Shown: positions 13,390-35,261 of the stretch, piece by piece
How the letters are laid out: every line of letters begins with the position of its first letter
How positions within the stretch are numbered: position 1 is the stretch's first letter
Origin: an uncultured Actinomycetota bacterium
Lineage (GTDB): Bacteria > Actinomycetota > Actinomycetes > Mycobacteriales > Jatrophihabitantaceae
NCBI GenBank assembly: GCA_963797785.1
Contig: CAWCQT010000001.1
Location: forward strand, 2,494 to 66,493
Direction: 5' to 3'
Length of the DNA stretch: 64,000 nucleotides
The notes under the pieces: model-generated
What the model was told of the DNA's origin: nothing
The model's input: only the letters and a program-made list of their open reading frames with translations
Database searches by the model: none
Program-made: the position numbers and the translations under genes

Positions 13390-14151
13390 CTAGCCGCGGG
13401 GCTCAGCCAGGAACAACTCGCGGGCGGTCCCGCCGAACACCCGGGCGCGCTGTGCGGCCTCGATGGGCCAGTCGACGATCCGGGCCACCTCGGCGTCGGG
13501 CACCGTGTAGGGGGTGTCGGTGGTGAACAGGATGCGGTCGTAGCCGACGGCGGCTTCGCGGGCGAATGAGGTCAACACGGTGTCCCACGGCGCGTACGCG
13601 GTGTCGGCCACCAGGTTGGGGGCGTGCACCAGCGCCGGCACCGCGTCGATCCAGAAGTCGGTGGCCCCACTGCGGCCCATCACGAACCGGGTCTGCGGGT
13701 AGCGGCGGGCCAGCAGGGCGACCGGCATGGGCACCGCCGTCGGTGGGGTGCCGGTTCGGATGTAGACCGGCCAGCCCCAGTCCGTCGCCCGCTCGATGAG
13801 CGGCTCGACCAGCCCGTCGTGCACGTCGAAGCCCTGCAGGACGGGGTCGACGGCCAGGGCGACCGCGCCGGCGTCCCGGGCCCGGTCGAGCTCGGCCACC
13901 GCGGCGGCGCCGAACCACGGGTTGGCCACGGCGTAGGCCAGCAGCCGACCCTCGGAGCGCGCTGCCGCGGCGGCGGTGGCCTCGTTGCCCGCACGGTTGG
14001 CCACCGCGATCTCGCGCTCGGACGGCGCGACGACCGCCTTGTCGATGCCGAGCCGGTCCATCGTGGCCAGCAGCCTGTCCACCGGCAGATCGACCTCCCG
14101 CGAGGGGCCGATCCGGACGTGGGCGTCGATGACCTCGGCGCCGCCGATCAC
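13390..14151 (-). CDS. amidohydrolase_2 family protein, subtype C (degenerate metal site)
   Basis: GTG start overlaps the upstream stop. IDAHVRIG, VYIRTG, VMGRSG, FTTDTP: TIM-barrel amidohydrolase pattern with His ligands replaced. Confidence 0.8.
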   Translation of the reverse strand: MIGGAEVIDAHVRIGPSREVDLPVDRLLATMDRLGIDKAVVAPSEREIAVANRAGNEATAAAAARSEGRLLAYAVANPWFGAAAVAELDRARDAGAVALAVDPVLQGFDVHDGLVEPLIERATDWGWPVYIRTGTPPTAVPMPVALLARRYPQTRFVMGRSGATDFWIDAVPALVHAPNLVADTAYAPWDTVLTSFAREAAVGYDRILFTTDTPYTVPDAEVARIVDWPIEAAQRARVFGGTARELFLAEPRG

Positions 14152-15077
14152 GACGCGCTCCCGGCCGACGATGGCCGGCTCAGCCCGAGCGCGTCGAGCG
14201 CGTCGGCGTGCACGATGCCCTCGATCAGCTCCTCCGGCACCCGGGGCAGTGCGGTGCCGGCGGTGATCGCGTTGACCCGACGGATGCCGTCGATCGCCTC
14301 TTGCGTATTGGCGATCGGGAAGTCCGAGCCGAGCAGCAGCTTGTTCATCACACCCCATTCGGTCGCGTACAGCAGGCTCTCGTAGCAGACCCACGGCCGC
14401 AGGTAGATGGACGAGACGTCGGCGTAGACGTGCGGATGCTTGCGGACCGTGACGACGGTCTCGCGGGCCCACGGGTGGCCCATGTGGGCCATGACGATGC
14501 GCAGCTCGGGGAAGTCGAGCGCGATTTCGTCCACCACCAGTGGGTAGGTGTAGCGCAGCGGAGCCGCGCGGATCGGTGACGCGCCTTGGTGCATCAGGAT
14601 CGGCAGCCCGCGGGCTTCGGCCTCGCGGTACAGCGCGCGGGCCGGCTCGCCCAGGGGATCGAACCGTTGATAGTTGGCCCCGAGCTTGATGCCCACCAGC
14701 CCCTGCTCGTGCCAGTGCCGCAGCTGCTCGATCGCGTCGGGCCAGGTCGGGTTGACCGACATGAAACCGATCCGCTTGTGCGGCGCATCCTGGGCGAAGG
14801 CCAGCGTGGCCGAGTTGGTGTCCTCGACCCGGTAGTCCAGACCGGTCGAGCCCAGCGGGTCGTCGACGGCGATGTTGAACACGATGGTGACGTCCGCCGC
14901 GGCCATCGCCTCGTCGTAGTCGGCCCAGGAGTTGGACGTGAGCACCGGCCGGTCGGTGCGCCAGTTCGGGTAGGAGCGCAGCTCGTCGTCGGGGACGGCG
15001 TGGGTGTGTGTCGGCGTGTGGGCGTGGACGTCCACGATCATCGTTTGCGGATCTCCGTTCGGGATGGGCATGGTCAA
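14148..15077 (-). CDS. amidohydrolase_2 family protein, subtype A
   Basis: VDVHAH, GIKLGANYQ, ILMHQG, MAHMGHPW, KLLLGSDFP. Confidence 0.88.
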   Translation of the reverse strand: MTMPIPNGDPQTMIVDVHAHTPTHTHAVPDDELRSYPNWRTDRPVLTSNSWADYDEAMAAADVTIVFNIAVDDPLGSTGLDYRVEDTNSATLAFAQDAPHKRIGFMSVNPTWPDAIEQLRHWHEQGLVGIKLGANYQRFDPLGEPARALYREAEARGLPILMHQGASPIRAAPLRYTYPLVVDEIALDFPELRIVMAHMGHPWARETVVTVRKHPHVYADVSSIYLRPWVCYESLLYATEWGVMNKLLLGSDFPIANTQEAIDGIRRVNAITAGTALPRVPEELIEGIVHADALDALGLSRPSSAGSAS

Positions 15078-16195
15078 CGCAGGGTGGCCGCGATGTCGGA
15101 CCGCAGTTCGACGCCAAGACCCGGGCCGTCGGTCAATCGGACGTGCCGGCCATCCCCGGGCAGAGGGGCGGCCAGGATGTCCTCGTCGTAGTAGTGGGCG
15201 CCGATGATGTCCGACGGGAACGCTTCGTACAGGTCGGGCAGGGCGCAGGCCACGTGCAGCTGAGCCGCCGCGCCGATACCGAGTTCCCCGTTCGAGCCGA
15301 CGATCGAGCGCAGGCCAAGCGTGCCGGCCGTCCGGGCCAGCTCGACCGCTCGGCCCGGCCCGCCGGCCTTGCCGACGTAGACGCTGACCACGTCGGCCGC
15401 TTCGGCGCGGGCCACCCGCAGCAGGTCGGCCTGGCCGAACACGGCCTCGTCGGCGATGACGACCGCGCCGCGCTCGCGGACCGCCCGCATCCCGTCGAGG
15501 TCGTCCGGGGCACAGGGCTGCTCGACGAAGGCCACGTCGAGGCCGGCCAGCGGTGTGACCGCGCGCAGCGCGTCGGCCCGGGTCCAGCCTCCGTTGGCGT
15601 CGACGCCGAGGAACACTTCCGGGCCGGCCAGCTTCCGGGCGTCGGCCACCCGGCGCAGGTCGGCGTCGAGACCGAGGCCGACCTTGACCTTGAACGCACC
15701 GAAGCCGAGGGCGGTCGCGGCCCGGTAGGCCTGCGCGAGCCGATCACCGTCGCCGGACAGCGACAGCTTGATAGGCACTTCGGTGCGGCGCGGCCCGCCC
15801 AGGGCGTGGCACAGCGGGAGGTCCAGCCATCGCGCCCACGCGTCCCAGAGCGCGATCGACACGCCGGCCTTGGTGAACGGGTTGGCCGCGACCAGCCGGT
15901 CCATCGTGTCGTCCCAGCCCGGTACCGGCGCCAGCCGTCGCCCGAACAGCGCCGGCGCGATGACGCTGCGGATCACGTGCTCGGCGGTCGTGGCGTCTTC
16001 CCCGCTCCAGAGCAGGGTGGCACTGACCTCGCCCACGCCGTACACCACACGACCGTCTTCCCCGCGCACCACCACACGCACGAGGAGGAAGTCCGACCGG
16101 TCGTGGGCGCCCTTGGCGCCAAGCACGGTCAGATCGGCCCGCGCGGCCAGGCTGACCCGGGCCGTCTGCACGGTCTCGACCGTCGGGCCGGTCAC
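15074..16195 (-). CDS. mandelate racemase/muconate lactonizing enzyme (enolase superfamily)
   Basis: FKVKVG, GVDANGG, FVEQP, IADEAV metal ligands; SVYVGKAGG at strand 6; GTG start overlaps the upstream stop. Confidence 0.9.
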   Translation of the reverse strand: MTGPTVETVQTARVSLAARADLTVLGAKGAHDRSDFLLVRVVVRGEDGRVVYGVGEVSATLLWSGEDATTAEHVIRSVIAPALFGRRLAPVPGWDDTMDRLVAANPFTKAGVSIALWDAWARWLDLPLCHALGGPRRTEVPIKLSLSGDGDRLAQAYRAATALGFGAFKVKVGLGLDADLRRVADARKLAGPEVFLGVDANGGWTRADALRAVTPLAGLDVAFVEQPCAPDDLDGMRAVRERGAVVIADEAVFGQADLLRVARAEAADVVSVYVGKAGGPGRAVELARTAGTLGLRSIVGSNGELGIGAAAQLHVACALPDLYEAFPSDIIGAHYYDEDILAAPLPGDGRHVRLTDGPGLGVELRSDIAATLR

Positions 16196-16986
16196 GAGGT
16201 CCGGCCCAGCAGATCGGCCGGGTTGCGGCAGAGCACCCGCTCCAGCTGGGCCGGCGACAGACCCCACTGGTGCAGCTCGCGGACCCGGGCCACGGCGTAG
16301 GCCTGGCCGACCTTGTCGCTGAGGCCGGCGTCGGAGCCGAAGACGACGCGGTCGGCCGGACACTCCTCGACGATCCGGCGGCCGGCGTAGGGCGGCACCC
16401 CGCACAGGCAGATGTAGAGGTTGTCCGTGTCCTGCACCGCGGCGATCGCCTCGCGCCAAGTGTCGTGCAGGCCGGCGTGACCGAGTACTACCGGGATGCG
16501 GGGATGGCGTCGCGCGAACGCGGCGATCTGACCGGCCGTGGCGTAGGGCGGTGTGCCGTCGTGGCAGAGCACGATCCCGCCGTGTGCGGCGACGACGTCG
16601 GCGATCGGATCGAGGCTGGGCTCGTGCATGCTGAAGCCCTGCAACCATGGGTGCATCTTGAGCCCGCGCATCCCGAGCTGGGCGAAGCAGCGTTCCATCT
16701 CGTCGGCCGCACCCGGGTAACGCGGGTTGACCGTGCCGAACGCGCGCAACCGGTTCGGTGCGGTCGACACGAACGCGGCCAGGTCGTCGTTGGCCTCGGA
16801 CGTGGCGTGGAATAGGCCGTCGTGGCTGAGCACCACGGCCTGGGCGATGCCGGCGGTGTCCATGAATGCCAGGAACTGCTCCGGGGTGAACGGCGTCCCG
16901 GCCAGCCAACTGGCGTGCCGCCAGGCCGGGGTATGGGTGTGGAAGTCGAACGTCGGTCCGAGCGCGAGCTCGGGCGAGGCGGTCAT
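16192..16986 (-). CDS. amidohydrolase_2 family protein, subtype B
   Basis: FDFHTH, GLKMHPWLQGF, CHDGTPPY, LGHAGL, FGSDAG. Confidence 0.88.
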   Translation of the reverse strand: MTASPELALGPTFDFHTHTPAWRHASWLAGTPFTPEQFLAFMDTAGIAQAVVLSHDGLFHATSEANDDLAAFVSTAPNRLRAFGTVNPRYPGAADEMERCFAQLGMRGLKMHPWLQGFSMHEPSLDPIADVVAAHGGIVLCHDGTPPYATAGQIAAFARRHPRIPVVLGHAGLHDTWREAIAAVQDTDNLYICLCGVPPYAGRRIVEECPADRVVFGSDAGLSDKVGQAYAVARVRELHQWGLSPAQLERVLCRNPADLLGRTS

Positions 16987-17738
16987 CGGGCGTCGTCCTC
17001 CGTCGGGGCCAGGGCGGTGATGTGATCGGCCAGCCGTCGGGCGCAGCGGTCGAACCAGACCGCACCGCGATGGGCATCGCCCCGGGCCGGGTTGTCGGTG
17101 TAGCCGTCGATGCTCTGCCAGTCAGCCGCGTCGTGGACCACGAGCGCCGGTCGGGCCGGCGCCACGGCTGGGGGATCGCGCGGTGAGACGGCCACGATCA
17201 GGTGTGGAGCGAGGTGGGCCATGAGGGAGGCCTCGAATGCACCGGCGTGGCCCGGGATCGGCGGGGCGTCGGAGTTGGCGCGGTCGCCCGGGTCGGCGAG
17301 CAGCAGCTCCCAGTAGTCGACGTAGCCGACCCGCAGCCCGGTGCGCGTCGCGGCGGCCTGTGCGGCGGCGTGGCAGGGCCCGCGGTTGCCGCCGTGTCCG
17401 TTCACGATCAGCAGCCGTCGGCCACCGGCCGCAGCGACCGACCGGGCCAGATCGAGGACGACCTGGGTCATCGTCTCGACGGTGAGCGACAGGGTGGCGC
17501 CGAAGGGGACGTGATGGTCCGATGCGCCGACCGGCACGACGGGGGCAAGGACCACCGGGCGCCCCGACTCCGCCTCGGCCAGCTCGACGGCTCGGGCCGC
17601 GACCGCGCCGACGATCAGCGTGTCCGTCCCCGTCGGTAACGCCGGGCCGTGCTGCTCGGTCGCGGCCACCGGCAGGACGACGACGGCGTCGGGCAGCACG
17701 TGGGCCAGCGTTGTCCGGTCGACCTCGGACCACCTCAT
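16983..17738 (-). CDS. creatininase family amidohydrolase
   Basis: LPVAATEQHGPALPTGTD, GASDHH, VNGHGGN, GHAGAFEAS. Confidence 0.9.
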   Translation of the reverse strand: MRWSEVDRTTLAHVLPDAVVVLPVAATEQHGPALPTGTDTLIVGAVAARAVELAEAESGRPVVLAPVVPVGASDHHVPFGATLSLTVETMTQVVLDLARSVAAAGGRRLLIVNGHGGNRGPCHAAAQAAATRTGLRVGYVDYWELLLADPGDRANSDAPPIPGHAGAFEASLMAHLAPHLIVAVSPRDPPAVAPARPALVVHDAADWQSIDGYTDNPARGDAHRGAVWFDRCARRLADHITALAPTEDDAR

Positions 17739-18741
17739 GCCGGCACCGGACCGGTACGCAGCGCGGCCACCCGCTCGCTCAGCTCGAGCGCACGGAGCCC
17801 GTCGGCCAGAGCCGGGGAGGGGCGGTCGGTGTCCCCGCGGATGAGCTCGACGAAGCGGGCCAGCTGGCGGTCGAAGCACCGCTCGCTGCGCGGACCGGGG
17901 AAGCAGACCTCCTCGGTGCCGCTCGCCGTGGTGAGGGTGAGGTCGAAGCCTTCCCGTCCAGCACGGCCATTCCGCGGCGGCCGAGGAACCGCAGTTCGCA
18001 GCGGGGCAGCGCGTCGGTCCACCAGCCGAACTCGACCAGCACCTGCGCGTTCTCGCCCCATTCCAGGCGGGCGCCGCCGAGGTTGGCCGCGCCCAGGCCG
18101 GGCTCGGTGGCCGTGGCCCACGCGTCGGCGATGGCTGACGGCGGCCCATCAAGCAGGAAGGCGAGCCAGTCGAAGACGTGCGCGCCTTCGTGCACCGCGG
18201 GGGCGCCATGGGTCAGCGTCTTCAGGATGCGGTCGGCGTGCTCGCTGCCGGGTGCGCTGCGCGCCTCGTCGTAGATGTCGGCGTGCACGAGCAGCGGAGC
18301 GCCCAGCACGTCCCCGACGATCCACTCCCGCAACCGGCCAAGGGCCGGGTCGTGGCGGTAGGTGAGGCCGACTTGCAGCTGGGCCTCCTGATCGGCCGGC
18401 AGTGCCCGCAATGGGGCGGCCGCGGCGGACGAGACCGCAAGCGGCTTCTCCGACAGGCAGAACCGCCCAGCGGCCAGCACCTCCGAGATGAGGTCGGTGG
18501 TTACCCACGGCGGGGTGGCCAGCACCACCGCGGCCACCGCCGGGTCGGCCAGGACCTCGGTCAGCCCGTCGGCCAGGGCGGCGTCCGGAACCAGTCGGTG
18601 TGTCGCCGCGCGCCGGTCCGGGTCCGGGTCGGCCACCGCGGCGACGCGGACGTCGGCCGACCGCAGCAGTGCGGGCAGGTGTTGGCTCATCGCGATGTCG
18701 CCGAGGCCCACGAGGGCGATGGAAACGGGTTGTCGGCTCAT
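17735..18741 (-). CDS. Gfo/Idh/MocA family oxidoreductase (single frameshift near 17955)
   Basis: IALVGLGDIA, VVLATPP, CLSEKPL, HEGAHVFD. The C-terminus GFDLT...CFDRQL continues in another frame after a G run. Confidence 0.88.
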
Positions 18742-19508
18742 GCCGGGGTCCATTCCAGCCCGATGTCGAGGATGAGGGCGTCGCCCGGATCCAGCCGTCG
18801 TGTCATCAGCTCCGCGGGCGAGGTCACCGGCTCCACGCACACCCCCTGCTCGGCCTGGTCGAACACCGTCACGAAGTCGCCCGACGTCCGCACCGTCAAC
18901 GTGCCCACATCCTCCCAGTGCACCCCGACCGGGTCACATGTGCGGAAGCAGTCGTCCCACGGCCCGGGGTCCGGACGGCGCCAGAGGCCGTTCGGCCGCC
19001 CGCCCGGACCGCGGTCCTGCACGAGCGCGGCCGGCGGCAGGGCGACCACCGCGCGCGGCGATCCGCTGATCGAGGCACGGAACCAGGGATGCCAGCCGAG
19101 CGCAGCCGGTAGTGCGTGCATGGTGGCCGTCAGCCGGAAGGACAGCGCCAGCGTCGACTCGCTCGCCTGCGCCTGCAGCTCCAGCCGACCGCCCAGCTTC
19201 CACCCGTCGAGGTCGACGGCAATCCCATCGGCGGTACGGTGCCAGCGTTGCGTCCGGACGAAGCCGTGCACCGCGTCGGCACCGACGTGCGGGGCCCCCT
19301 CGTGTGTGTTGCCGTCGAAGTCGAACCGAGCGCCGGGCAGCCAACTCGTCCAGGGGGCCATCGTCAGCGCACCCCACCACAGCTCGTCCGGGTGGACCTC
19401 GGTGACGAGCAGTTGGTGGCCGCCCAGCACGAGCTCGGTCATCCGCGCACCGTCCAGGTCGAAGGTCGCCGTCGACGTCCCCGAGCGGACGGTCCAGGCG
19501 TCGCTCAC
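18738..19508 (-). CDS. aldose 1-epimerase/galactose mutarotase-like protein
   Basis: MAPWTSWL, AVHGFVR, PAALGWHPWF, WDDCF, GVCVEPVT. Confidence 0.8.
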   Translation of the reverse strand: MSDAWTVRSGTSTATFDLDGARMTELVLGGHQLLVTEVHPDELWWGALTMAPWTSWLPGARFDFDGNTHEGAPHVGADAVHGFVRTQRWHRTADGIAVDLDGWKLGGRLELQAQASESTLALSFRLTATMHALPAALGWHPWFRASISGSPRAVVALPPAALVQDRGPGGRPNGLWRRPDPGPWDDCFRTCDPVGVHWEDVGTLTVRTSGDFVTVFDQAEQGVCVEPVTSPAELMTRRLDPGDALILDIGLEWTPA

Positions 19509-20902: not shown

Positions 20903-20912
20903 GTGTCATCCT

Positions 20913-20932
20913 ATCTACGAAATGTCGAATAT
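20913..20932. promoter_or_regulatory. second IclR-type operator ATCTACGAAATGTCGAATAT
   Basis: 16/20 identical to 8097-8116. Overlaps a TAGGAT -10-like hexamer (minus strand) just upstream of the 20902 GTG. Confidence 0.65.
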
Positions 20933-20979
20933 ATTTTGCCTATACGAGAGAGTTTAGAGACACTGCGGCGGACGGTTCA

Positions 20980-21110
20980 AGACCCTGGACCGGATCAAGT
21001 GTCGTCGGAATCCTTGTGCGGCGACATCATCGCTACAAACACGAGAGCCACTGGTCTGTGCAGCGGCAGTCCGACGGATCGACGGTGTGGACCAGTCCAC
21101 CGGCCACCTA
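20980..21110 (+). pseudogene. HNH endonuclease C-terminal remnant of a DUF222-type protein
   Basis: LC(fs)RRHHRYKHESHWSVQRQSDGSTVWTSP resembles LCRxHHRxKH...W...DG...WTSP. Confidence 0.55.
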
Positions 21111-21199
21111 CGCCATTCTCTGTCTCGAGACCAGGATGGTCTTGCGCACGCACCGATCGTTGCCGACCGTTCAACCACCGGCGACGGACTGGATAACCT

Positions 21200-21350
21200 G
21201 CACCGTCGCCCGTTCGGATCAGGGTGTGCCGACACCTGGAACCTACGTATGTCGCTGCCGTTCGAGGTAGATGTTGACGTACCGGCGCACCGCTCCGGTC
21301 TCGTCGCGCAGCAACTGAACGTCCCACCGCCGTCAATGCTCAGATACGCG
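21200..21350 (-). pseudogene. MoaD/ThiS family remnant
   Basis: YLSIDGGGT ... LRDETGAVRRYVNIYL..DIRR, with deletion and frameshift. Confidence 0.5.
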
Positions 21351-21359
21351 TCGCCGTCG

Positions 21360-21712
21360 CGCGAGCCGAGACGATGCCGGCCGGGTGAACGCTTCGATCC
21401 ATTCGAAGATCGCGTTCGCCAGCTCGGCTCGGGTCGACCAGGTGGCGGTCGAGCAGCTCGATCTGCAGGGAGGCGAAGAACGACTCCGTCAGCGCGTTGT
21501 CGTCGGCGGATGCGACTTTGCCTATCGAGCCGTACAGGACGGCCTCGCGCAGCCAGTTTGGCGAACACCCCGACGTGTACTGGGTACCGCGGTCGGAGTG
21601 GACGACGTGCCGACCGGTTTGCGTTGCCAGCGGGCCATGTCCAGGGCGTCGACGACGAGCTCGGTGCGCAGGTGATCGGCGATCGGCGATGGGCGATCGA
21701 CCAGCCACCGTC
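21360..21712 (-). mobile_element. IS3-family transposase remnant (OrfB integrase core, 3' part)
   Basis: GWSIADHLRTELVVDALDMARWQRKP..VHSDRGTQYT...DNALTESFFASLQIELLDR, with frameshifts; no right end seen. Confidence 0.85.
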
Positions 21713-21767
21713 CTGATCGTCATGGTTACGGCCTCTGGCGCCTCCGACGGTCAATCGTTCGCGGCCC

Positions 21768-24035: not shown

Positions 24036-25075
24036 GACGACTGGCCAACGTCAGGGGCCGCCCAACGCGATGCAGTACCGATCATTGCCTCTGCCGCCGG
24101 GCGCCGGATGGCCGCTACAACCTGTTCTCCCAAGCGCAGTGACTGAACGCCCACGGCAACCGAAGTCTCCGGAGTAGTGCGCTGCCGCAAGCAAGTCACG
24201 AAGTGCTCGAGCTGTAGGTCGAAGCACAGGTCGTTCCACGGGCGACTCAGTCGGACGCGTTCGGTCCGGTCGCGCCGGGTCATGGTGACGACACCACCTG
24301 GGCGATCGAGGATGGCGACGCCGTCCGGTCCGAGTGCGCGGAATTCGCCGGCCGGGCTGCTTGGGAACAGCCAGCCGATCTCCAGCCGGGCAACATCGCC
24401 GTTGCCGTATCGCACCAGTGCGGACACGAAGTTCTCGCTCCCAAGATCTGGAATCGAGCTAAGGCCGATGGCCTGCACATCGACCGGGTGCGAGCCGGTC
24501 AGGTACGCGAGGTGATCGGCAAAATGCGCGCCCTCGTGAACGAAGCTGGGCGCCACGTCGAGAAAGGCACGGATCCGCCGCTCGTGCATCGGGTCAGTCG
24601 GGTCTCGTGCCTCATCGAAGCCGCCGAGGGTGAAGGCAATGGGACCACCAAGGTCGCCGCCCTCGATCCAACCGCGTACCGCACGAACCAACGGTGAGAA
24701 CCGATTCTTGAACCCGACCTGAACCACCCGGTCACAGTTTTCGACCGCCTGTTGCACACTGAGCGCGGTCTGCAGGTCGAGGGCCATCGGCTTCTCACAG
24801 AGCACGTCCAGCCCGACGCCGATCGCCGCAAGAGTCAGCAGCGGTGTCACCTGCGGCGGAGTCGCGATGACGACCGCCTGCACCCGTTGGTTGGCCAGCT
24901 GCGTGACGGAGCCGGCGGTGGCACACCCGTATTGTGCCGCCACGTTCTGGGCGCGCGCCGGATCGGAGTCCATTACCGCGACCAGCTGCACCTCCGAGCT
25001 TCGCGACAGCGCGGGTAGATGTCCGGTCATTGCGATGTCTCCGCAGCCGATGAGGGCGACGCTGATCCGACTCAT
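24032..25075 (-). CDS. Gfo/Idh/MocA family oxidoreductase
   Basis: VALIGCGDIA, VIATPP, LCEKPM, HEGAHFAD; paralogue of 17735-18741. Confidence 0.9.
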   Translation of the reverse strand: MSRISVALIGCGDIAMTGHLPALSRSSEVQLVAVMDSDPARAQNVAAQYGCATAGSVTQLANQRVQAVVIATPPQVTPLLTLAAIGVGLDVLCEKPMALDLQTALSVQQAVENCDRVVQVGFKNRFSPLVRAVRGWIEGGDLGGPIAFTLGGFDEARDPTDPMHERRIRAFLDVAPSFVHEGAHFADHLAYLTGSHPVDVQAIGLSSIPDLGSENFVSALVRYGNGDVARLEIGWLFPSSPAGEFRALGPDGVAILDRPGGVVTMTRRDRTERVRLSRPWNDLCFDLQLEHFVTCLRQRTTPETSVAVGVQSLRLGEQVVAAIRRPAAEAMIGTASRWAAPDVGQSS

Positions 25076-25115
25076 TAGCCCACCGCCCTTGACCGGAGTC
25101 GACACGATCCGGGGG

Positions 25116-25871
25116 TCATGGCAGTCCCAACCAGTGCGCAGCGTTTGCGTACCGCACTGCCGCCGACTCGGCGTCAGACAGGCCTACCAGGATCCGGCGT
25201 AACACGGCAAGCCGGTGCCGAGGCAGGTCCGTGGAACCGAACCCGGAGTCGGTACCCATGGCTACCCGTTCGATGGGCACGCCGTGCAGCACGCTGCGCA
25301 GCACGGCGCCCGACGCCGATCCGCACAGTGTGACCATCACGTTGGGCCATCGGTTGACTGCGGCGACAGCGTCTTGCCACAGGTCGATAAGCCCGCCGTG
25401 TGCCAGTACGACCAAGCATGCCGGCACCGCTGCGGCGAGCTGGCCGATTTGCAATGGAGACGAATATGGCGGAGTGCCGTCGTGTACGAGCAGGGGCATA
25501 CCGTGCTCGGCTGCCCGTTTCGCCACCGCGATGGACTCTGCCTCGATTGGGGAGAATCCCTGCAACCACGGATGCAATTTCACCGCTCGGAACCCGATGG
25601 CCGCGCAGCGGTCTAATTCCTCGAGTGCACCAGGGTCGTGGGGGTCGACTGTGCACGCTGCCACCAGCCGATCGATGGTGTCCGCGCAGACCTCGGCGAC
25701 CTCATCGTTGCTGCGGCGCGGATCGAAGTACAGCCCGTCCAGCGGCATGACCACGGCGCGGGAGATGTCGTGGCGGTCCATCATGTCGAGCGCGGCCGCT
25801 CGCATGTCATCAGGTGACCGGCCGGCGGCGCGCGGCGGAAGGTGCGTGTGCATGTCGAAGATGCTGGTCAC
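25116..25871 (-). CDS. amidohydrolase_2 family protein, subtype B
   Basis: FDMHTH, VKLHPWLQGF, VHDGTPPY, LAHGGL, MGTDSG; paralogue of 16192-16986. Confidence 0.88.
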   Translation of the reverse strand: MTSIFDMHTHLPPRAAGRSPDDMRAAALDMMDRHDISRAVVMPLDGLYFDPRRSNDEVAEVCADTIDRLVAACTVDPHDPGALEELDRCAAIGFRAVKLHPWLQGFSPIEAESIAVAKRAAEHGMPLLVHDGTPPYSSPLQIGQLAAAVPACLVVLAHGGLIDLWQDAVAAVNRWPNVMVTLCGSASGAVLRSVLHGVPIERVAMGTDSGFGSTDLPRHRLAVLRRILVGLSDAESAAVRYANAAHWLGLP

Positions 25872-26626
25872 ACCGCTCGCCCCAACAGTCGCCGTGCAGT
25901 TGCGGTGAAGATCGCGTGACGTGCGTTTGCTGAGAGGTCGGCTCGTCGGAGCCGGGCGACTTCGAGGTCCAGGTCGTTGAAGGGCGCGTCGCTGGCGAAC
26001 GCTATCCGGTTCGGGCCTATGAGTGCCGCGAGTTCCGCGATCAGCTCCGGTCCGTTGTATGCGGTCTCGGCGACGATGTTGTCCACCGCACGCAGGGTAG
26101 GAGTCAGGTCGAGGGAGTAGTCCGTTCTACCGGAGCGGCCGAGCACGAAGGTCACCGTGGGGAATCGTCGGGCGAGTTCGGCGAGCTGGAACGGCTCGCT
26201 GGCAATGGGCACTCCGGTCACCACGTACACGGGTTTGCCATGTTCGGCAGCCACCTCCAGCAGCGGGCGCACCAACGCTTGCTGCAGCAAACTGAACCCC
26301 TGCACGGCCGGGATCAATTTGAGGCCGGCAACATCCGCGCTGAGCGAGGCAGCCAGCCGGGCTGCGGCGTCCGGGTACCACGGGTTCACCGTCACCCATC
26401 TGGAAAACCTGCCTGGCCAGCGCTCGCACCACTTCTGCAGCTCACGATTACCGGCTTCGTTGTCGACAGCTGCCCAGCGCCCGATCGGGCCGAGCGCCGC
26501 GTGGCCCACCCCGGATGCGTCCATCGCTGCCAGCAATGGTTCCGGTGAGGTGAAGTCGAAGCCTGGCGCGGATCCGGCCGCGCAGTGCAGGTCCACTCCG
26601 CCACGAGAGAAGTCGGTGGGAGTCAT
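25868..26626 (-). CDS. amidohydrolase_2 family protein, subtype C (degenerate metal site)
   Basis: VDLHCAAG, VYVVTG, VLGRSG, FASDAP; paralogue of 13390-14151. Confidence 0.8.
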   Translation of the reverse strand: MTPTDFSRGGVDLHCAAGSAPGFDFTSPEPLLAAMDASGVGHAALGPIGRWAAVDNEAGNRELQKWCERWPGRFSRWVTVNPWYPDAAARLAASLSADVAGLKLIPAVQGFSLLQQALVRPLLEVAAEHGKPVYVVTGVPIASEPFQLAELARRFPTVTFVLGRSGRTDYSLDLTPTLRAVDNIVAETAYNGPELIAELAALIGPNRIAFASDAPFNDLDLEVARLRRADLSANARHAIFTATARRLLGRAV

Positions 26627-26637
26627 CTGGGGCCGCG

Positions 26638-27525
26638 TCAGCCTGCGACAGGGGTCGGAAAGTCGGAGAGCATCGCAGCCAATTCCGCGCGTTCGTCGGA
26701 CAGTAGCGGCAGGAGCGGCAGGCGGACTAGCGGTGCGGATCTACCGAGCAGTGCCATTCCTTCTTTGAGGACGGTGATGTGGTAGCCGGGCCGTCGGCGA
26801 CGCAGCGCAAGGAGGGGCTCAGCGCGGATCATGAGTTCGTCGAAGCGCGCTCGATCGCCAGCCACCGCCGCGTCCCAGACGCCCAGCGAGAGCCCGGGGT
26901 CCAGATTCGCCAACCCAGAGGTCATCGCCTGTGCCCCGGCGGCGGCATACTGCATCGCTAGCGGCTCGGCCATTCCGTTGATCCAGGTATAACGCTCGCC
27001 CAGTCGCGCCTTACTGGCCGCAAACAGCTCGACGTCCCCGTGCTCGTCTTTGACGGCGGCCACTTGCGGCACCGTGGCCAATGCCTCCAGCTCGTCCGGG
27101 CCGTACACGGCGCCTTCGGTGCTGAAGACAATCAGCGGCAGATCGGATGCCGCCCCGATCGCGCGGTAATGCTCGACGAGTCCGCGCAGTTCCGGTCGGA
27201 TGAAGTAGAGCGGATTGACCATCAACGCATCCGCCCCGTGCCGGGACGACTGTGCGGCGAGGTCGGCGGCGATCGCGGTGCTGTGCCCTATGCCGGCAAT
27301 GACCGGCACCCGGTCGGCAGCGGCGGAGTGGGCGGCTGCTAGCAGTGTCCGATGCTCGATACTGCTCAGCGAGTAGAACTCCCCCACGCCGCCGGCGACC
27401 ACGACCGAGGACGCGCCGCCGTCGATCAAGAACTCGACCTGACGCTCGATCGCAGCCGAATCGATAGTGCCGTCTTCGGTGAATGCCGTTGGCAGAAAGG
27501 CCATCAGTCCGGTCAGGTTGATCAT
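26638..27525 (-). CDS. DapA family protein, 5-dehydro-4-deoxyglucarate dehydratase-like
   Basis: LMAFLPTAFTEDG, GGVGEFYSL, AVKDEHGD, WINGMAE, MTSGLAN; ATG overlaps the upstream stop. Confidence 0.8.
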   Translation of the reverse strand: MINLTGLMAFLPTAFTEDGTIDSAAIERQVEFLIDGGASSVVVAGGVGEFYSLSSIEHRTLLAAAHSAAADRVPVIAGIGHSTAIAADLAAQSSRHGADALMVNPLYFIRPELRGLVEHYRAIGAASDLPLIVFSTEGAVYGPDELEALATVPQVAAVKDEHGDVELFAASKARLGERYTWINGMAEPLAMQYAAAGAQAMTSGLANLDPGLSLGVWDAAVAGDRARFDELMIRAEPLLALRRRRPGYHITVLKEGMALLGRSAPLVRLPLLPLLSDERAELAAMLSDFPTPVAG

Positions 27526-28424
27526 CACAATCCATTCTGTGCGCCGGACAGGAACTGCTCGGCGTTGTGCTCGATGATCGCTTCGATGTCGGCCTCGGGC
27601 AGCTGGGGCAGCCTCGTACCGGCGACGATGTCGTTTACGCCACGTAGCCCGGCGATGGTGTCCTCCAGCGTCGCGCTGGGGAAGTCCGAGCCGAGCAGCA
27701 GCTTGTGAGTGACGCCGTATTCGTAGGCAGTGATCATCGCCTGCCAGTACCGGTACGGCCGGTAGTGGCAAGCCGAGATGTCGGAGTACACGTTCGGTGC
27801 CTTGCGGATCAGCGCCGCGACGTCCTGCTCCCACGGATGGCCGAGGTGTGCGATCACAATTCGCAGCCTCGGAAACGCCATGGCAAGCGGTTCCAGCTGC
27901 AGCGGGCCGGCCAGATCGATGCGTGCCCTCGACGGGAACGTGGTGCCTTGATGCACCATCACCGGCAGGTCCCATCGTTCGCAGTGGGAAAAGACCTCCC
28001 AGGTGGTGCGATCCTGCGGATTCCAATGCTGGTAGGCCGGGCCGACCTTCAAGCCGCGCAGACCGAGCTCGTGCACAGACCGATCAAACTCGGCGACCGC
28101 ATCCGGCTCCGCGGGATTCACCGACGCCCACCCCTCGATGTTCCCGGGATGCGCGCTGGCGTACTCGGCGATCACGTCGTTGGGCACCCAGAAGCCGGTG
28201 GGTCGCGCCTGCAGCCCGAACACCACGACGCGATCAGCCTGCGCTGCCGCAGCGAGATGCTCATCTGGTGTGGCGTCCTGAACGTGCAGGTCGAGGTGTG
28301 CGGCGTAGGCCTTGCCACCACTGCGCGCCAGCTTGACCTGCTTTGCGGCAAGGGCCTCCTGGGCCGTCTGCTCGCTGATGTGCTCGGGGTACCACATCAG
28401 ATGTGTGTGGATGTCTATGCGCAT
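27525..28424 (-). CDS. amidohydrolase_2 family protein, subtype A
   Basis: IDIHTH, GLKVGPAYQ, VMVHQG, IAHLGHPW, KLLLGSDFP; paralogue of 14148-15077. Confidence 0.88.
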   Translation of the reverse strand: MRIDIHTHLMWYPEHISEQTAQEALAAKQVKLARSGGKAYAAHLDLHVQDATPDEHLAAAAQADRVVVFGLQARPTGFWVPNDVIAEYASAHPGNIEGWASVNPAEPDAVAEFDRSVHELGLRGLKVGPAYQHWNPQDRTTWEVFSHCERWDLPVMVHQGTTFPSRARIDLAGPLQLEPLAMAFPRLRIVIAHLGHPWEQDVAALIRKAPNVYSDISACHYRPYRYWQAMITAYEYGVTHKLLLGSDFPSATLEDTIAGLRGVNDIVAGTRLPQLPEADIEAIIEHNAEQFLSGAQNGL

Positions 28425-29521
28425 CGCAACGCCTCGATCCGCTCAACATCCACCTCGACGCCCAACCCTGGACCGTCCGGAACGCGCAGCTGACCGTCTT
28501 TGATCACCGGTGCCGTTACCACGATGTCCGTCGGGTACCGCAACGGACCGACGACATCGGACTCGTAGCCAAGGTTCGGTACCGCAACACCTACATGCGC
28601 GCATGCGGCAGTGGCCAGGCCGAGCTCGCACTGACTGCCGAGCAGCCCTACCAGACCGGCAGCCTCGGCCGCGGCGAAGGCCTTCCATGCTTGCAGTGGG
28701 CCCCCTACCTCAGTGACGTAGATGTTCAGGACGTCAGCGGCACCGCGACGAACGATCTCCCCTATGTCGCGCAGGGTCCAGCACGACTCGTCGAGCATGA
28801 GCGGAGTCCGCAACTTGTCGCGCAGCCGGGCCAGCTCGTCAAGGTCCCGCGGTGGCAGCGGCTGTTCGATGAGTTGTAGCTGCAGCTCCTCCAACGGCGC
28901 GAGAGCTGCGTATGCCTCACCCGCGCTGCGATAGGCCATGTTCGCATCGACCTTGATGGCTACTTCTGCGCCGACCGCATCGCGCACGGCGGCAACCACA
29001 TCATGGTCGATCCGGCCTGGTCGGCCAACCTTCAACTTGACTACTGCGAAGCCGTTCTCAACTGCGCGCACCGCCGTTTCGGTGGTCTGCTCGACAGACC
29101 CCCATGGCAGCGGCCAGGCGACCGGCACCGATTCCCGGACTCGGCCGCCGAGCAACCGATACGCCGGCACGCCAAGGGCCTTTCCGGCGATATCGAGCAG
29201 GGCCATCTGAACGGCCGCCTTCGCGGCGTGGGCGCCATCGGTCGGCAGATCCAGACGCCGGTCGACGGCTAGCCCGCAGGCAGCCAGGTCACGCGGATCC
29301 ATTCCGTGAACGGCCGGCGCGATGCTGAGCTCAACGTCGCGGCACAACGCCCGGCCCACGCGGCCCCACGACATCGCGATCTCACCCCAGCCAGTGATGT
29401 CTGCGTCTGTGTCTACGCGAACGACACCGAATTCCGATACATCGATGGAGCCCTGTGTGGCGACCATCGGGGTGATCCGCGGTACCGAGATCGGCGTCGC
29501 TGTGATGCGGGTGATGCGCAT
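28415..29521 (-). CDS. mandelate racemase/muconate lactonizing enzyme (enolase superfamily)
   Basis: VKLKVG, KVDAN, LIEQP, MLDES; NIYVTEVGG at strand 6. Confidence 0.9.
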   Translation of the reverse strand: MRITRITATPISVPRITPMVATQGSIDVSEFGVVRVDTDADITGWGEIAMSWGRVGRALCRDVELSIAPAVHGMDPRDLAACGLAVDRRLDLPTDGAHAAKAAVQMALLDIAGKALGVPAYRLLGGRVRESVPVAWPLPWGSVEQTTETAVRAVENGFAVVKLKVGRPGRIDHDVVAAVRDAVGAEVAIKVDANMAYRSAGEAYAALAPLEELQLQLIEQPLPPRDLDELARLRDKLRTPLMLDESCWTLRDIGEIVRRGAADVLNIYVTEVGGPLQAWKAFAAAEAAGLVGLLGSQCELGLATAACAHVGVAVPNLGYESDVVGPLRYPTDIVVTAPVIKDGQLRVPDGPGLGVEVDVERIEALRCA

Positions 29522-33496: not shown

Positions 33497-33560
33497 AGGC
33501 CGATTGTCGCGCAGCGGTGGCCGCCCGGGTCATCCCGGACGGCCACGAGGGCGGCTGCTT

Positions 33561-35153: not shown

Positions 35154-35261
35154 GCGAGATCCCCTCATATGCCGCCTACGAATGGGCGCTCGTGACCAGG
35201 CGGTTCGGCTGACTAGGTGGCTACGGTAGGGCGGACGCCTGGTGCGAGTCAAGACCCATGC

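Follow-up and report, generated by a model that had tools for sequence, protein, structure and literature searches.

A twice-occurring catabolic module of orphan enzyme subfamilies, possibly acting on amino-sugar-type compounds, in an uncultured actinobacterium

Related catabolic routes

The oxidative D-galacturonate/D-glucuronate pathway of Agrobacterium tumefaciens comprises Udh, Gli, Gci, KdgD and a 2-oxoglutarate semialdehyde dehydrogenase, and the Weimberg/Dahms-type non-phosphorylative pentose pathways are exemplified by AraA-AraE of Azospirillum and by the haloarchaeal Gfo6/XacD. The hydroxyproline route also ends with a DapA-family enzyme and a GucD-like dehydrogenase, and among the rhizopine (inosamine) genes the DegT, DapA-like and Gfo families are also found together. 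The ong pathway of Pseudoalteromonas prydzensis acts on C1-oxidised chitin products (GlcNAc1A) (PMC9537276, PMC12017989); there, GlcNAc1A is deacetylated by an amidohydrolase-superfamily enzyme and converted to KDG by a deaminating eliminase together with RidA, which is essential (PMC9537276).

Here, a window of 64,000 nucleotides (the whole stretch of DNA analysed) from an uncultured Actinomycetota bacterium was found to carry two operons with related gene content. The sequences indicate that the operons diverged anciently and were acquired independently, and we put at roughly 55% the probability that both encode a single cytoplasmic pathway, so far uncharacterised, in which an amino-sugar-type glycan unit is broken down oxidatively and without phosphorylation.

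Paired gene content of the two clusters

Cluster 1 (13.4-18.7 kb) and cluster 2 (21.8-29.5 kb) have six subfamilies in common, both on the minus strand, and all 12 of the predicted genes were located there. The features of the region are as follows.

4586..4978, minus strand: RidA (Ribonuc_L-PSP; Pfam), upstream of cluster 1
8141..11407, plus strand: CUT1-type sugar ABC importer of cluster 1 (translations), with substrate-binding protein at 8141-9496 and permeases at 9493-10527 and 10520-11407
11451..12446, plus strand: DapA-family enzyme copy 1 (PF00701, 83.5 bits)
12574..13380, plus strand: IclR-family regulator of cluster 1 (HTH_IclR and IclR_C)
13390..14154, minus strand: amidohydrolase C copy 1 (PF04909; metal ligands replaced, pattern H-R-A-R-R-D)
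14148..15077, minus strand: amidohydrolase A copy 1 (PF04909; HxH/K/H/H/D intact)
15074..16195, minus strand: enolase-superfamily protein copy 1 (MLE-like; KxK kept, beta6 Lys replaced by Tyr)
16192..16986, minus strand: amidohydrolase B copy 1 (PF04909; HxH/K/H/H/D intact)
16983..17738, minus strand: creatininase-fold hydrolase copy 1 (PF02633, 177 bits; metal ligands conserved)
17735..18738, minus strand: Gfo/Idh/MocA oxidoreductase copy 1 (1-base frameshift in a G run at about 17950)
18738..19442, minus strand: weakly mutarotase-like protein of the cluster 1 operon (Aldose_epim E 6e-4, under the Pfam cut-off)
19505..20821, minus strand: first gene of the cluster 1 operon, cytoplasmic glycoside-hydrolase-like product ((beta/alpha)8 barrel plus beta-sandwich, no assigned family)
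21330..21700, minus strand: degenerate IS3-type transposase (rve) remnant at the cluster junction (HSDRGTQYTS...DNALTESFF over shifted frames)
21768..24035, minus strand: creatininase copy 2 fusion, 755 aa, with transglutaminase-like (Cys-His-Asp) and CBM32-like domains (Pfam)
24032..25105, minus strand: Gfo/Idh/MocA oxidoreductase copy 2
25116..25871, minus strand: amidohydrolase B copy 2
25868..26626, minus strand: amidohydrolase C copy 2 (ligand pattern H-A-K-V-R-D)
26638..27525, minus strand: DapA-family enzyme copy 2, KdgD-like (PF00701, 183 bits)
27525..28424, minus strand: amidohydrolase A copy 2
28415..29521, minus strand: enolase-superfamily protein copy 2 (K162/K164, D192/E219/D244, Y268)
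29591..35252, minus strand: peptide/opine-type ABC importer of cluster 2 (two ATPases, two permeases, family-5 binding protein; translations)
35260..35269, no strand: operator-like palindrome GCCCTAGGTC, upstream of the cluster 2 operon

In an all-against-all BLASTP comparison, the six subfamilies formed reciprocal-best pairs with 34-41% identity between the clusters (amidohydrolase A 41%, 7e-52; B 39%, 3e-45; C 37%, 4e-38; enolase 34%, 3e-37; creatininase 36%, 8e-38; Gfo 38%, 1e-53), and the cross-subtype scores of the amidohydrolases reached at most 77 bits, with namesake scores far higher. Pfam concurred, recognizing three PF04909 Amidohydro_2 proteins, MR_MLE_N/C, GFO_IDH_MocA and Creatininase in each cluster. 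The clear pairing claimed in the original prediction was thus reproduced, every motif cited there was found in the sequence, and the enolase-amidohydrolase A and Gfo-creatininase adjacencies are kept in both clusters. At 27% identity (7e-15), the DapA-family genes can be added as a seventh pair, weaker than the other six. The genes of both clusters are translationally coupled, with 4-bp or short overlaps, and the catalytic residues of amidohydrolases A and B, enolase, creatininase, Gfo and DapA are intact.

The similarity of the clusters might be a mere coincidence of common catabolic families whose genes do not form one pathway, as PF04909, Gfo/Idh/MocA, MR_MLE and DHDPS are large families common in actinobacterial genomes and a third, unrelated set of such families lies at 36-52 kb of the window. 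However, this third set has no match to the two clusters, and coincidence is contradicted by the subfamily-level reciprocal-best pairing (E values 1e-37 to 1e-54), the translational coupling, the retained type-1 gene order and the joint recurrence of the subfamilies in dozens of genomes from several phyla, including the 52-locus set described below; we give this explanation almost no credence.

The transporter classes differ as predicted, with a sugar (CUT1) ABC importer in cluster 1 and a peptide-type one in cluster 2. The closest solved relatives of the cluster 1 binding protein are the oligosaccharide binders CbpB and GacH (E 7e-16), and SBP_bac_1/BPD_transp_1 genes are present in clusters orthologous to cluster 1. 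The family-5 binding protein of cluster 2 (ORF 33561-35252) is closest, among solved structures, to 5u4o and to AgaA, which binds agropinic acid, and all its scores against the NCBIfam nickel, opine and oligopeptide binding-protein models remain under cut-off. Of the regulators proposed for the two clusters, the IclR gene does accompany cluster 1 and recurs within type-1 loci, but no GntR gene adjoins cluster 2; the closest, a GntR/FCD regulator at 40446-41225, is tied to it only via the common GACCTAGGTC operator-like palindrome at 35260. The GCCCTAGGTC palindrome also occurs in promoters at 40423, 47041, 51689 and 54969 (8 matches versus 1.5 expected; none of 100 shuffles reached 8).

The product of 19505..20821 had no sequence match in Pfam, NCBIfam or PDB; a Foldseek search with its AF2 model (pLDDT 77) returned the GH156 exosialidase 6s04 first (E 2e-10), then GH51/157/164/191, and homologues occur in 7 type-1 loci. 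The adjacent mutarotase-like protein has no homologue among the other module loci. DapA copy 1 conserves the Schiff-base Lys, and its orthologues, 60-76% identical, directly follow amidohydrolase C in at least 13 type-1 loci; copy 2 scores 212 bits on TIGR03249 KdgD (cut-off 374) and 218 bits on PRK03620 (cut-off 278). Comparison with four orthologues established the frameshift of Gfo copy 1; as pdxJ (244-1862) is split too, an indel introduced in assembly is the probable cause. In cluster 2, the creatininase is the N-terminal third of the fusion protein, whose C-terminal domain matches CBM32 by profile and by fold; the two fusion parts are encoded by separate adjoining genes in Jiangella mangrovi and one metagenome relative. 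The RidA at 4586..4978 is 41% identical to RidA of Paenibacillus module loci.

Recurrence of the module and origin of the two copies

Among 185,579 species genomes, 203 relatives of amidohydrolase B were found; the module is present in several phyla, and many soil bacteria carry it. A set of 52 public loci, each centred on an amidohydrolase B gene and complete for 10 kb on either side, showed the expected co-occurrence across genomes (counts not phylogenetically independent): 24 loci have all six genes, and the individual partners number 51 for amidohydrolase C, 35 for Gfo, 33 each for creatininase and amidohydrolase A, and 31 for enolase. The six-gene core consists of three two-gene sub-modules (the C-B pair, Gfo-creatininase and enolase-A, the last with or without DapA) plus DapA, and only C-B is near-universal. 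Type-1 loci retain the order Gfo-creatininase-B-enolase-A-C-DapA at 46-81% identity.

Downstream, three kinds of partner replace one another: enolase accompanied by RidA and a 2-oxoglutarate-semialdehyde dehydrogenase in some loci, DegT aminotransferases in others and NagA/NagB-like genes in a third group. RidA occurs in 12/45 loci with enolase or amidohydrolase A versus 0/35 loci without them, lying within 10 kb in only about one quarter of enolase loci, and the corresponding counts for an aldehyde dehydrogenase closest to the alpha-ketoglutaric semialdehyde dehydrogenase GucD (627 bits) are 13/45 and 0/35. DegT was found in 13 of the 35 loci lacking enolase and amidohydrolase A and never alongside enolase; NagA-like genes (7/35) were likewise confined to loci without enolase, and the loci that have them also carry NagB-like and SIS genes. 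Peptide/opine-type transporters accompany 17/45 enolase/amidohydrolase A loci (those within flank reach), CUT1 sugar transporters serve orthologous type-1 and type-2 modules interchangeably, and LacI, ROK and IclR regulators are also present in module loci.

The amidohydrolase B tree places copy 1 in a starred clade of 16 rows, with 81% identity to a Streptosporangiaceae MAG; Jiangella and Dactylosporangium share another starred clade, of 8 rows, with copy 2. The paired proteins share subfamilies, though each cluster copy belongs to a separate well-supported orthologue clade, which rules out recent duplication as the source of the two clusters. Jiangella endophytica also carries both types (L001, L075). 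The proposal that the module was acquired twice fits this phylogeny, together with the step in G + C content from 72% to 65% at about 20.2 kb and the IS3 remnant between the clusters.

Candidate pathway and comparison with known systems

No module protein attains any NCBIfam cut-off or is a close relative of a solved structure, in agreement with the claim that the set maps to no characterised pathway. The best family and structure matches of the enolase are muconate cycloisomerases and N-succinylamino-acid racemases, not known acid-sugar dehydratases, and its second-best NCBIfam match is cis-3-hydroxy-L-proline dehydratase (109 bits, cut-off 500). The KxK motif and three metal ligands of the MLE subgroup are conserved, but 38/38 module enolases have an invariant Tyr at the position of the catalytic Lys that closes strand beta6, and the 207 bits scored fall short of the subfamily cut-off (335). 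The creatininase-fold proteins (PF02633, 177-183 bits) conserve the binuclear metal ligands and catalytic His, but score under the equivalog cut-offs for MftE (102/172), creatininase (81/235) and IolN (61/245), and the cluster 2 protein differs further in its fused domains. Amidohydrolase B appears to be a competent metal hydrolase, and amidohydrolase C, having lost the metal site, probably acts as its partner or as a metal-free catalyst.

Most probably the module acts on an amino-sugar-type unit, either an N-acylated amino sugar or an aminouronic acid, that comes from an oligosaccharide or glycoconjugate taken up by the cell, and breaks it down to 2-oxoglutarate. The oligomer or conjugate would be taken up by the CUT1-type (cluster 1) or family-5-type (cluster 2) importer, and the monomer freed by the glycosidase-like protein in cluster 1 and by the transglutaminase-like/CBM32 domain fused to the creatininase in cluster 2. 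By analogy, the creatininase-fold enzyme and the C-B pair may strip N-acyl or other amide- or ester-linked substituents. Gfo/Idh/MocA with NAD(P)+ would then yield a lactone or keto sugar, and amidohydrolase A could open or isomerise the lactone as PF04909 lactonases and Gli do. The enolase, with its KxK base and Tyr in place of the second Lys, would abstract the alpha proton of a 2-amino or 2-hydroxy acid and eliminate the beta substituent; for an amino-bearing substrate, RidA would hydrolyse the imine. Aldol cleavage had been proposed as the last reaction; KdgD-type dehydration/decarboxylation of a 2-keto-3-deoxy acid to 2-oxoglutarate semialdehyde is more likely, DapA copy 2 being closest to KdgD. 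A GucD-like dehydrogenase would give 2-oxoglutarate; its gene occurs in related loci, and the window holds no 2-oxoglutarate-semialdehyde dehydrogenase, DegT or kinase gene. The two copies may serve related but different substrates.

A sugar context is supported by the CUT1 transporters, the LacI/ROK/IclR regulators, the glycoside-hydrolase-like first gene, the CBM32-like domain and the FG-GAP/PL11-like and pectate-lyase-like neighbours, an amino group by RidA, DegT and NagA-like proteins as three alternative deamination solutions downstream of the C-B core, and the end product by the KdgD and GucD affinities. In an alternative without an amino group, the substrate would be a neutral sugar or plain uronic acid and the oxidative pathway of Weimberg or uronate type; the additional amidohydrolases and creatininase would then work as lactonases, lactone isomerases or esterases (O-acyl or methyl-ester removal). 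Gfo, PF04909, enolase, KdgD-like DapA and GucD-like dehydrogenase do make up the non-phosphorylative aldose/uronate family set, FG-GAP/PL11-like and pectate-lyase-like proteins lie nearby in one island with the clusters, and the Arg-for-His replacements in amidohydrolase C would suit carboxylate binding. However, this leaves unexplained the recurring, mutually exclusive C-B partners and the need for four metal/amide hydrolases, and the enolase and amidohydrolase A are not close to Gci and Gli; we regard it as unlikely.

Counting against the favoured reading are the peptide/opine-type transporters of cluster 2 and other loci, the muconate cycloisomerase- and racemase-like enolases, the absence from the window of the dehydrogenase, DegT and kinase genes named above, the limited presence of RidA and the frameshifted Gfo copy 1. 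These transporters, the AgaA relationship, the transglutaminase-like domain, the creatininase fold and RidA could instead indicate a peptide-borne or conjugated amino acid (hydroxyproline-type, Amadori/opine-like sugar-amino-acid conjugates or muropeptides), with the hydrolases cutting amide or lactam bonds, the enolase, given its hydroxyproline dehydratase match, working on the amino acid and DapA acting as a pyrroline-hydroxy-carboxylate deaminase that yields 2-oxoglutarate semialdehyde, as at the end of the hydroxyproline route. The interchangeable CUT1 transporters, the glycoside-hydrolase-like gene, CBM32 domain, LacI/ROK regulators and NagA/NagB partners speak against this, as do the Tyr replacing the Lys required for two-base epimerisation and the failure to see proline-racemase-type or D-amino-acid dehydrogenase genes, making it slightly more doubtful still. 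Distinctly improbable is a cyclitol or aminocyclitol (inositol- or inosamine-like) pathway with Gfo as an inositol-type dehydrogenase and the creatininase-fold protein as an IolN-like hydrolase opening a diketo ring. The best NCBIfam and PDB matches of Gfo copy 2 are inositol 2-dehydrogenases (102 bits; 4hkt), the creatininase domain matches the IolN 3-dehydro-scyllo-inosose hydrolase, the Gfo-creatininase adjacency is conserved, and the DegT, DapA-like and Gfo co-occurrence may parallel the rhizopine genes. Nevertheless, the inositol-related scores are far under their cut-offs (355 and 245), IolN is outscored by the MftE and creatininase models, no further iol genes are present, and the glycoside-hydrolase-like gene and CBM32 domain are left unexplained.

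The amino-sugar-type pathway that we favour resembles the Agrobacterium uronate pathway in logic and superfamilies: a lactone-forming dehydrogenase, an amidohydrolase-superfamily lactone enzyme adjoining an enolase-superfamily cycloisomerase/dehydratase, and a DapA-family KdgD followed by an aldehyde dehydrogenase giving 2-oxoglutarate. It differs in its dehydrogenase, Gfo/Idh/MocA in the module but an SDR in the Agrobacterium pathway. The Gci structures reach 79 bits with the enolase, whose best match reaches 169 bits, amidohydrolase A has no Gli-like match among solved structures at E <= 1e-3, the KdgD scores are below cut-off, and B, C, creatininase, RidA, DegT and NagA/B lack counterparts. 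With Weimberg/Dahms routes it shares a Gfo/Idh/MocA aldose 1-dehydrogenase, a lactonase, an acid-sugar dehydratase (of the enolase superfamily in archaea), a DapA-family 2-keto-3-deoxy-acid dehydratase and a 2-oxoglutarate semialdehyde dehydrogenase, but not orthology (on the Gfo6 model, Gfo copy 2 gets 53 bits against a cut-off of 350); the module further differs in its MLE-like enolase with Tyr for Lys, its additional hydrolases, and its oligosaccharide- or peptide-type importers and glycosidase-like gene, which suggest a conjugated substrate. As in the ong pathway, an N-acyl amino-sugar acid would be de-N-acylated by an amidohydrolase-superfamily enzyme and deaminated by alpha,beta-elimination to a 2-keto-3-deoxy acid, and the RidA essential there accompanies the enolase sub-module here; however, OngB is a D-aminoacylase-type PF07969 protein rather than PF04909, the OngC deaminase is PLP-dependent whereas the module has an enolase, the ong product is phosphorylated by KdgK where a KdgD-like enzyme comes next in the module, and ong has neither Gfo nor creatininase. 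Because non-phosphorylative sugar-acid routes already known follow the same chemical logic, the novelty would lie in the enzyme subfamilies and the substrate and not in the kind of system: a pathway akin to the Weimberg, uronate and ong routes, yet built of orphan enzyme subfamilies.

Gene content and descent of the two clusters

ORF listing, translation and Pfam scans of the window revealed two minus-strand clusters. Here amidoA, amidoB and amidoC denote three subtypes of PF04909 amidohydrolase, and copies 1 and 2 are the proteins of clusters 1 and 2. Throughout cluster 1 the gene junctions are overlaps of 4 bp or 1 bp.

4586-4978: RidA gene, upstream of cluster 1
8141-13380, plus strand: CUT1 sugar ABC importer, DapA-family gene and IclR regulator, convergent with cluster 1
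20821 to 13390, minus strand: cluster 1, in the order glycosidase-like (GH-like), weakly mutarotase-like, Gfo/Idh/MocA (Gfo), creatininase, amidoB, enolase, amidoA, amidoC
21330-21700: degenerate, frame-shifted remnant of an IS3-family transposase (HSDRGTQYTS...DNALTESFF), between the clusters
35252 to 21768, minus strand: cluster 2, in the order family-5 binding protein, two permeases, two ATPases, enolase, amidoA, DapA-family, amidoC, amidoB, Gfo, creatininase fusion
21768-24035, minus strand: the copy 2 creatininase (755 aa), fused to transglutaminase-like and F5/8-type-C domains according to Pfam

The original prediction held that six enzyme subfamilies are doubled as clear pairs. An all-against-all BLASTP of the window proteins bore this out with six reciprocal-best pairs, to which the DapA-family proteins added a seventh; matches between different amidohydrolase subtypes reached at most 77 bits. 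Each motif that had been named for these proteins was also found.

Pairs between copy 1 and copy 2 (BLASTP identity; E value)
amidoA: 41%; 7e-52
amidoB: 39%; 3e-45
amidoC: 37%; 4e-38
enolase: 34%; 3e-37
creatininase: 36%; 8e-38
Gfo: 38%; 1e-53
DapA: 27%; 7e-15

In copy 1 of Gfo, one base is absent from a GGG run near 17950 (17940-17960), and the frame switches where four orthologues continue. This break is probably an assembly indel and not a sign of a pseudogene, because pdxJ (244-1862) is also split, into two overlapping minus-strand ORFs that each match PF03740; as a second likely indel, the latter suggests an error-prone (possibly long-read) assembly. The creatininase and transglutaminase-like/CBM32 parts form a single frame in the window, and apparently likewise in Jiangella endophytica and J. 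ureilytica, while in J. mangrovi and a metagenome relative each part has a gene of its own, the two lying side by side. The loci compared in this respect included L082 (12464-14663) and L084 (13540-15788).

The two sets could in principle have arisen by a recent duplication within this genome, but several lines of evidence ruled this out. The six pairs are only 34-41% identical, and in a maximum-likelihood tree of 83 amidoB sequences the two copies fell in different starred clades: copy 1 in a 16-row Actinomycetota clade, nearest to a Streptosporangiaceae MAG (81%) and Actinocatenispora rupis, and copy 2 in an 8-row clade with Jiangella and Dactylosporangium (56%). The tBLASTn searches gave the same division, as all cluster 1 proteins were best matched by orthologous (type-1) loci elsewhere at 46-81%, and the cluster 2 proteins by the loci of Jiangella and Dactylosporangium at 48-70%; J. 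endophytica carries one locus of each type (L001 and L075). In addition, the G + C content falls from about 72-74% over cluster 1 to about 64-66% from 20.2 kb on, with the IS3 remnant beside this step. The view that two separate, diverged copies are present thus stands, and we conclude with high confidence that both belong to a single conserved but uncharacterised catabolic pathway, found here in two lineages. A tRNA-linked island was also considered and rejected, as ARAGORN found no tRNA in the 64-kb window.

The GntR regulator expected beside cluster 2 does not adjoin it; the nearest lies at 40446-41225. The palindrome GACCTAGGTC precedes the cluster 2 operon with one mismatch, and sites with 0-1 mismatch stand ahead of five operons in all (35260, 40423, 47041, 51689 and 54969), with eight matches in the window against 1.5 expected. 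As it is common to cluster 2 and to four operons at 40-55 kb, the palindrome ties cluster 2 to a larger island of 21-55 kb. It is likely the operator of the GntR/FCD regulator at 40446-41225, and cluster 2 is probably linked to that regulator through it. Between 36 and 55 kb, the island carries FG-GAP/PL11-like proteins, a pectate-lyase-like beta-helix and a formamidase-like protein, as well as a third catabolic set (36036-52651) of amidohydrolase, Gfo, enolase and DapA genes, whose subfamilies are unrelated to those of the module:

36036: Amidohydro_2 protein
36724: Gfo with an OxRdtase_C domain
37838 and 44206: FG-GAP proteins
40446: GntR regulator
41346: ManD/GalD-like enolase
42533: D-aminoacylase-like protein (PF07969)
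47172: AAC(3)-like acetyltransferase
48064: DMFA2_C protein
51539: DHDPS protein

This set was rejected as a third copy of the module, since its BLASTP matches to the module subfamilies are absent or weak.

Conservation and locus architectures in other genomes

AmidoB belongs to a small family, with 97 clusters at 90% identity among word-sharing candidates (E <= 1e-10), 343 representatives at 50% identity in a search of 1.84 billion proteins (E <= 1e-30), and 203 relatives in 185,579 species represented by one genome each. The best 80 loci were searched, with 10-kb flanks, with all 14 window proteins, and a gene was scored as present at 100 bits or more. Among the 52 loci with complete flanks, amidoC was found in 51, Gfo in 35, creatininase and amidoA in 33 each, enolase in 31 and DapA in 19. 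The co-occurrence across genomes that the original prediction implied was indeed observed: all six genes stood together in 24 of these 52 loci, and at least five in 32. Over all 80 loci, 30 contained the complete set, and in 46 amidoC was the gene immediately upstream of amidoB, in the same orientation.

The full set was found in Actinomycetota and in Paenibacillus, the former including Nonomuraea, Nakamurella, Amycolatopsis, Actinopolymorpha, Actinocatenispora, Jiangella, Fodinicola, Conexibacter, Gaiellales and Thermoleophilia. The amidoC-amidoB (C-B) pair by itself, in some cases accompanied by Gfo and creatininase genes of weak similarity, occurs in Planctomycetota, Verrucomicrobiota, Kiritimatiellota, Lentisphaerota, Spirochaetota, Chloroflexota and Bacillota. 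Clustering of all locus ORFs, together with scans of the recurrent neighbours, sorted the surroundings of the C-B core into three architectures:

Actinomycetota and Paenibacillus: Gfo-creatininase, enolase-amidoA, DapA, often RidA and a GucD-like aldehyde dehydrogenase, with a CUT1 sugar or family-5 peptide transporter
PVC phyla, spirochaetes and Jiangella type 2: ROK (absent in Jiangella), Gfo, one or two DegT/PseC-like aminotransferases, creatininase, C, B
Chloroflexota, some Bacillota and Kribbella: URO-D-like, a 388-aa protein of unknown function, C, B, CUT1, C45 acyltransferase/hydrolase, GH88-like, SIS, NagA-like, NagB-like

The partner genes alternate between these architectures, in counts that are phylogenetically non-independent. 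RidA was present in 12 of the 45 loci with enolase or amidoA and in none of the 35 loci without them, and the GucD-like dehydrogenase in 13/45 and 0/35; its closest model is that of the alpha-ketoglutaric-semialdehyde dehydrogenase GucD, at 627 bits (cut-off 770). Conversely, NagA-like genes were found in 0/45 and 7/35, and DegT in 4/45 (all Jiangella, lacking enolase) and 13/35; the 17 DegT loci and the 40 module-enolase loci among the 80 do not overlap, although these loci are not phylogenetically independent. Taken with that reservation, the pattern is consistent with one core joined to three alternating ways of amino-group disposal, namely elimination with RidA, transamination, and NagB-type deamination. 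This alternation is the main reason for proposing a substrate of the amino-sugar type, a class to which we attach moderate confidence.

Further neighbours were noted in individual loci. In Nonomuraea basaltis (L081, 4430-5674), a gene of the histidinol-dehydrogenase family (TIGR00069, 444 bits) lies between the sugar transporter and RidA/enolase, and the oxidation of an amino alcohol to the amino acid is a possible role of its product. Recurrent neighbours of 366, 388 and 818 aa obtained no Pfam or NCBIfam assignment, and a 339-aa protein gave only a weak U32-like match (L041, 12999-14099; L015, 8053-9219; L018, 7140-8159; L022, 2178-4634).

Catalytic residues and family membership

Both copies of amidoA, amidoB and amidoC match PF04909 with 81-125 bits (cut-off 26.4). 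In amidoA (40 sequences) and amidoB (83 sequences), the HxH/Lys/His/His/Asp residues are invariant, and these proteins therefore look like competent metal hydrolases. In amidoC, however, the ligands are replaced in both window copies (HRARRD at 13390-14154 and HAKVRD at 25868-26626). The histidines of strands 5 and 6 are replaced in every enolase-type locus, mostly by Arg and also by Val or Lys, and an intact HHKHHD is found only in class II (NagA/NagB-type) loci (within locus handles L001-L080), so that the ligand pattern follows locus architecture. Having lost its metal ligands, amidoC may be either a non-catalytic partner of amidoB or a metal-free catalyst; LigI is a metal-free catalyst. 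In a Rosetta-stone test, two-domain PF04909 proteins of about 500 aa (P0181, P0182, P0187 and others), a distant branch at 25-32% identity with a degenerate N-terminal and a catalytic C-terminal domain, lent weak support to a C-B complex. At L084, a two-domain PF04909 gene (2634-4142) adjoins an FAA-hydrolase and a module enolase (closest type-2 relative).

None of the three subtypes matched an NCBIfam model, and their best PDB matches were 3irs, an uncharacterised protein (amidoA, 7e-9), LigW (amidoB, 8e-5) and 3cjp (amidoC, 4e-6). Identification with a named PF04909 enzyme (LigI, Gli, fucono- or rhamnono-lactonase, or the ACMSD/LigW decarboxylases) was thus rejected, there being no close characterised or solved relative.

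Across 38 enolase sequences, conservation is 95% or more for K162 and K164 (KxK at beta2) and for the metal ligands D192, E219 and D244. At the end of beta6, Y268, which is invariant in the module enolases (15074-16195, 28415-29521 and 36 related loci), aligns with the second catalytic Lys of Pseudomonas putida MLE and Bacillus cereus NSAR. With Tyr in place of this Lys, a one-base eliminase is more plausible than a two-base racemase, and the module enolases stand out as a distinct branch of the MLE subgroup. Scores against the muconate/chloromuconate cycloisomerase model TIGR02534 were 207 and 186 bits (cut-off 335). Among solved structures, 2p88 gave 169 bits, but the Gci entries of A. tumefaciens only 79. 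Membership of the MLE or NSAR families was rejected on the basis of the sub-cut-off scores and the absent second Lys.

The remaining proteins showed the same combination of conserved residues and sub-threshold family scores. In 23 module sequences of the DapA family (PF00701, 83 bits for DapA1 and 183 for DapA2), the Schiff-base K159 and G45 and E49 (GxGE) are conserved, as is characteristic of the DHDPS/NAL superfamily. KdgD (5-dehydro-4-deoxyglucarate dehydratase) is the nearest family for DapA2 only (TIGR03249, 212 bits against 374; PRK03620, 218 against 278), with DapA1 scoring 35 and 38 bits. The creatininases (PF02633, 177 and 183 bits) conserve E35, H37, D46, H120, E174 and H169, among them the binuclear-site ligands, and fall below the equivalog cut-offs of creatinine amidohydrolase (81/235), MftE (102/172) and IolN (61/245). 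Gfo matches PF01408 and PF22725, conserves E104-K105-P106 and the catalytic H194 in 43 sequences, and resembles the solved structure 4hkt (2.5e-18); Gfo2 lies below the cut-offs of IolG (102/355) and Gfo6 (53/350). Since no module protein attains an NCBIfam curated cut-off, the expectation that the set would not be assignable to a described pathway was supported.

Two further proteins add to the carbohydrate context given by the island genes at 36-55 kb and the RidA gene upstream of cluster 1. For the gene that opens the cluster 1 operon (19505-20821), no sequence match was obtained in Pfam, NCBIfam or PDB, and a profile search of its GH-like product against PDB sequences likewise returned nothing. 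Its AlphaFold model (pLDDT 77) consists of a (beta/alpha)8 barrel and a beta-sandwich, for which Foldseek gave GH156 exosialidase 6s04 as the best match (E 2e-10), followed by GH51, GH157, GH164 and GH191. The C-terminal domain of the creatininase fusion resembles CBM32 by both profile and fold, with matches that include the chitosan-binding modules of Paenibacillus IK-5; the transglutaminase-like part was modelled poorly (pLDDT 65) and gave matches only from the CBM32-like tail.

A candidate pathway and its relation to known routes

Combining these observations, a sequence of reactions may be proposed, in which the assignment of individual enzymes to steps is of low to moderate confidence. 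After import of an oligomer or conjugate, the monomer would be freed, in cluster 1 by the GH-like protein and in cluster 2 by the transglutaminase-like/CBM32 domain. Acyl or amide substituents would be taken off by the creatininase-fold enzyme together with the B/C pair, Gfo would carry out an NAD(P)+-dependent oxidation, and amidoA might open or isomerise the lactone. The enolase would then abstract the alpha-proton and eliminate the beta-substituent, and in the case of a nitrogen-containing substrate RidA would remove the imine. Finally, the KdgD-like enzyme would convert the product to 2-oxoglutarate semialdehyde, and a GucD-like dehydrogenase would yield 2-oxoglutarate. No gene for this dehydrogenase occurs in the 64-kb window.

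The most far-reaching interpretation, to which we give a chance of about one in five, is that of a new route to 2-oxoglutarate with two new enzyme activities, starting from N-acylated aminouronic or amino sugars in the cell-wall and capsule polymers of bacteria or fungi. Under this reading, the MLE-like enolase with Tyr for Lys would be a deaminating dehydratase whose substrates are 2-amino-2-deoxy sugar acids, and RidA would remove the imine. The heteromeric PF04909 pair of catalytic B and metal-site-less C would constitute a new enzyme that de-N-acylates carbohydrates or processes lactones, and enolase with RidA, DegT transamination and NagB-type deamination would be three interchangeable back ends across phyla.

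The module is a clean, well-bounded target for enzyme-function discovery. Its orphans (three PF04909 subfamilies, an enolase branch with an altered residue, a creatininase-fold hydrolase and a Gfo enzyme) are kept together in soil Actinomycetota and Paenibacillus, and the two diverged versions side by side offer a natural pair for specificity studies. A solution would probably reveal a new catabolic route for amino sugars or sugar acids, with a bearing on the turnover of microbial necromass and glycans in soil, and would allow several hundred to a few thousand genes now called generic "amidohydrolase family protein" to be correctly annotated.

Literature searches found no published description of this gene set, nor of glucosaminate/enolase/RidA routes matching it. 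The Udh-Gli-Gci-KdgD uronate pathway of A. tumefaciens was rejected, as the Gci, Gli and KdgD comparisons gave scores under the cut-off or pointed to other families. A 2-oxoglutarate semialdehyde dehydrogenase, the last enzyme of that pathway, is absent from the 64-kb window but present in 13/45 related loci as the GucD-like gene (627/770). Membership of the Thermotoga maritima iol pathway was likewise rejected on sub-cut-off scores. In the ong pathway of Pseudoalteromonas prydzensis for GlcNAc1A (C1-oxidised chitin), the deacetylase is of D-aminoacylase type and the deaminase PLP-dependent; a kinase also takes part, and RidA is essential (PMC9537276). Its deacetylase OngB belongs to PF07969, whereas the module hydrolases belong to PF04909, and neither a PLP deaminase such as OngC nor a kinase such as KdgK was found in the clusters, which excludes the module from that pathway. 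RidA is the sole common component, and ong is a functional analogue of the module, not a homologue. Given that no curated cut-off is attained, that the related structures are remote and that ong is non-homologous, the module would work in the manner of the non-phosphorylative oxidative routes (Weimberg, uronate and ong) but is a member of none of them.
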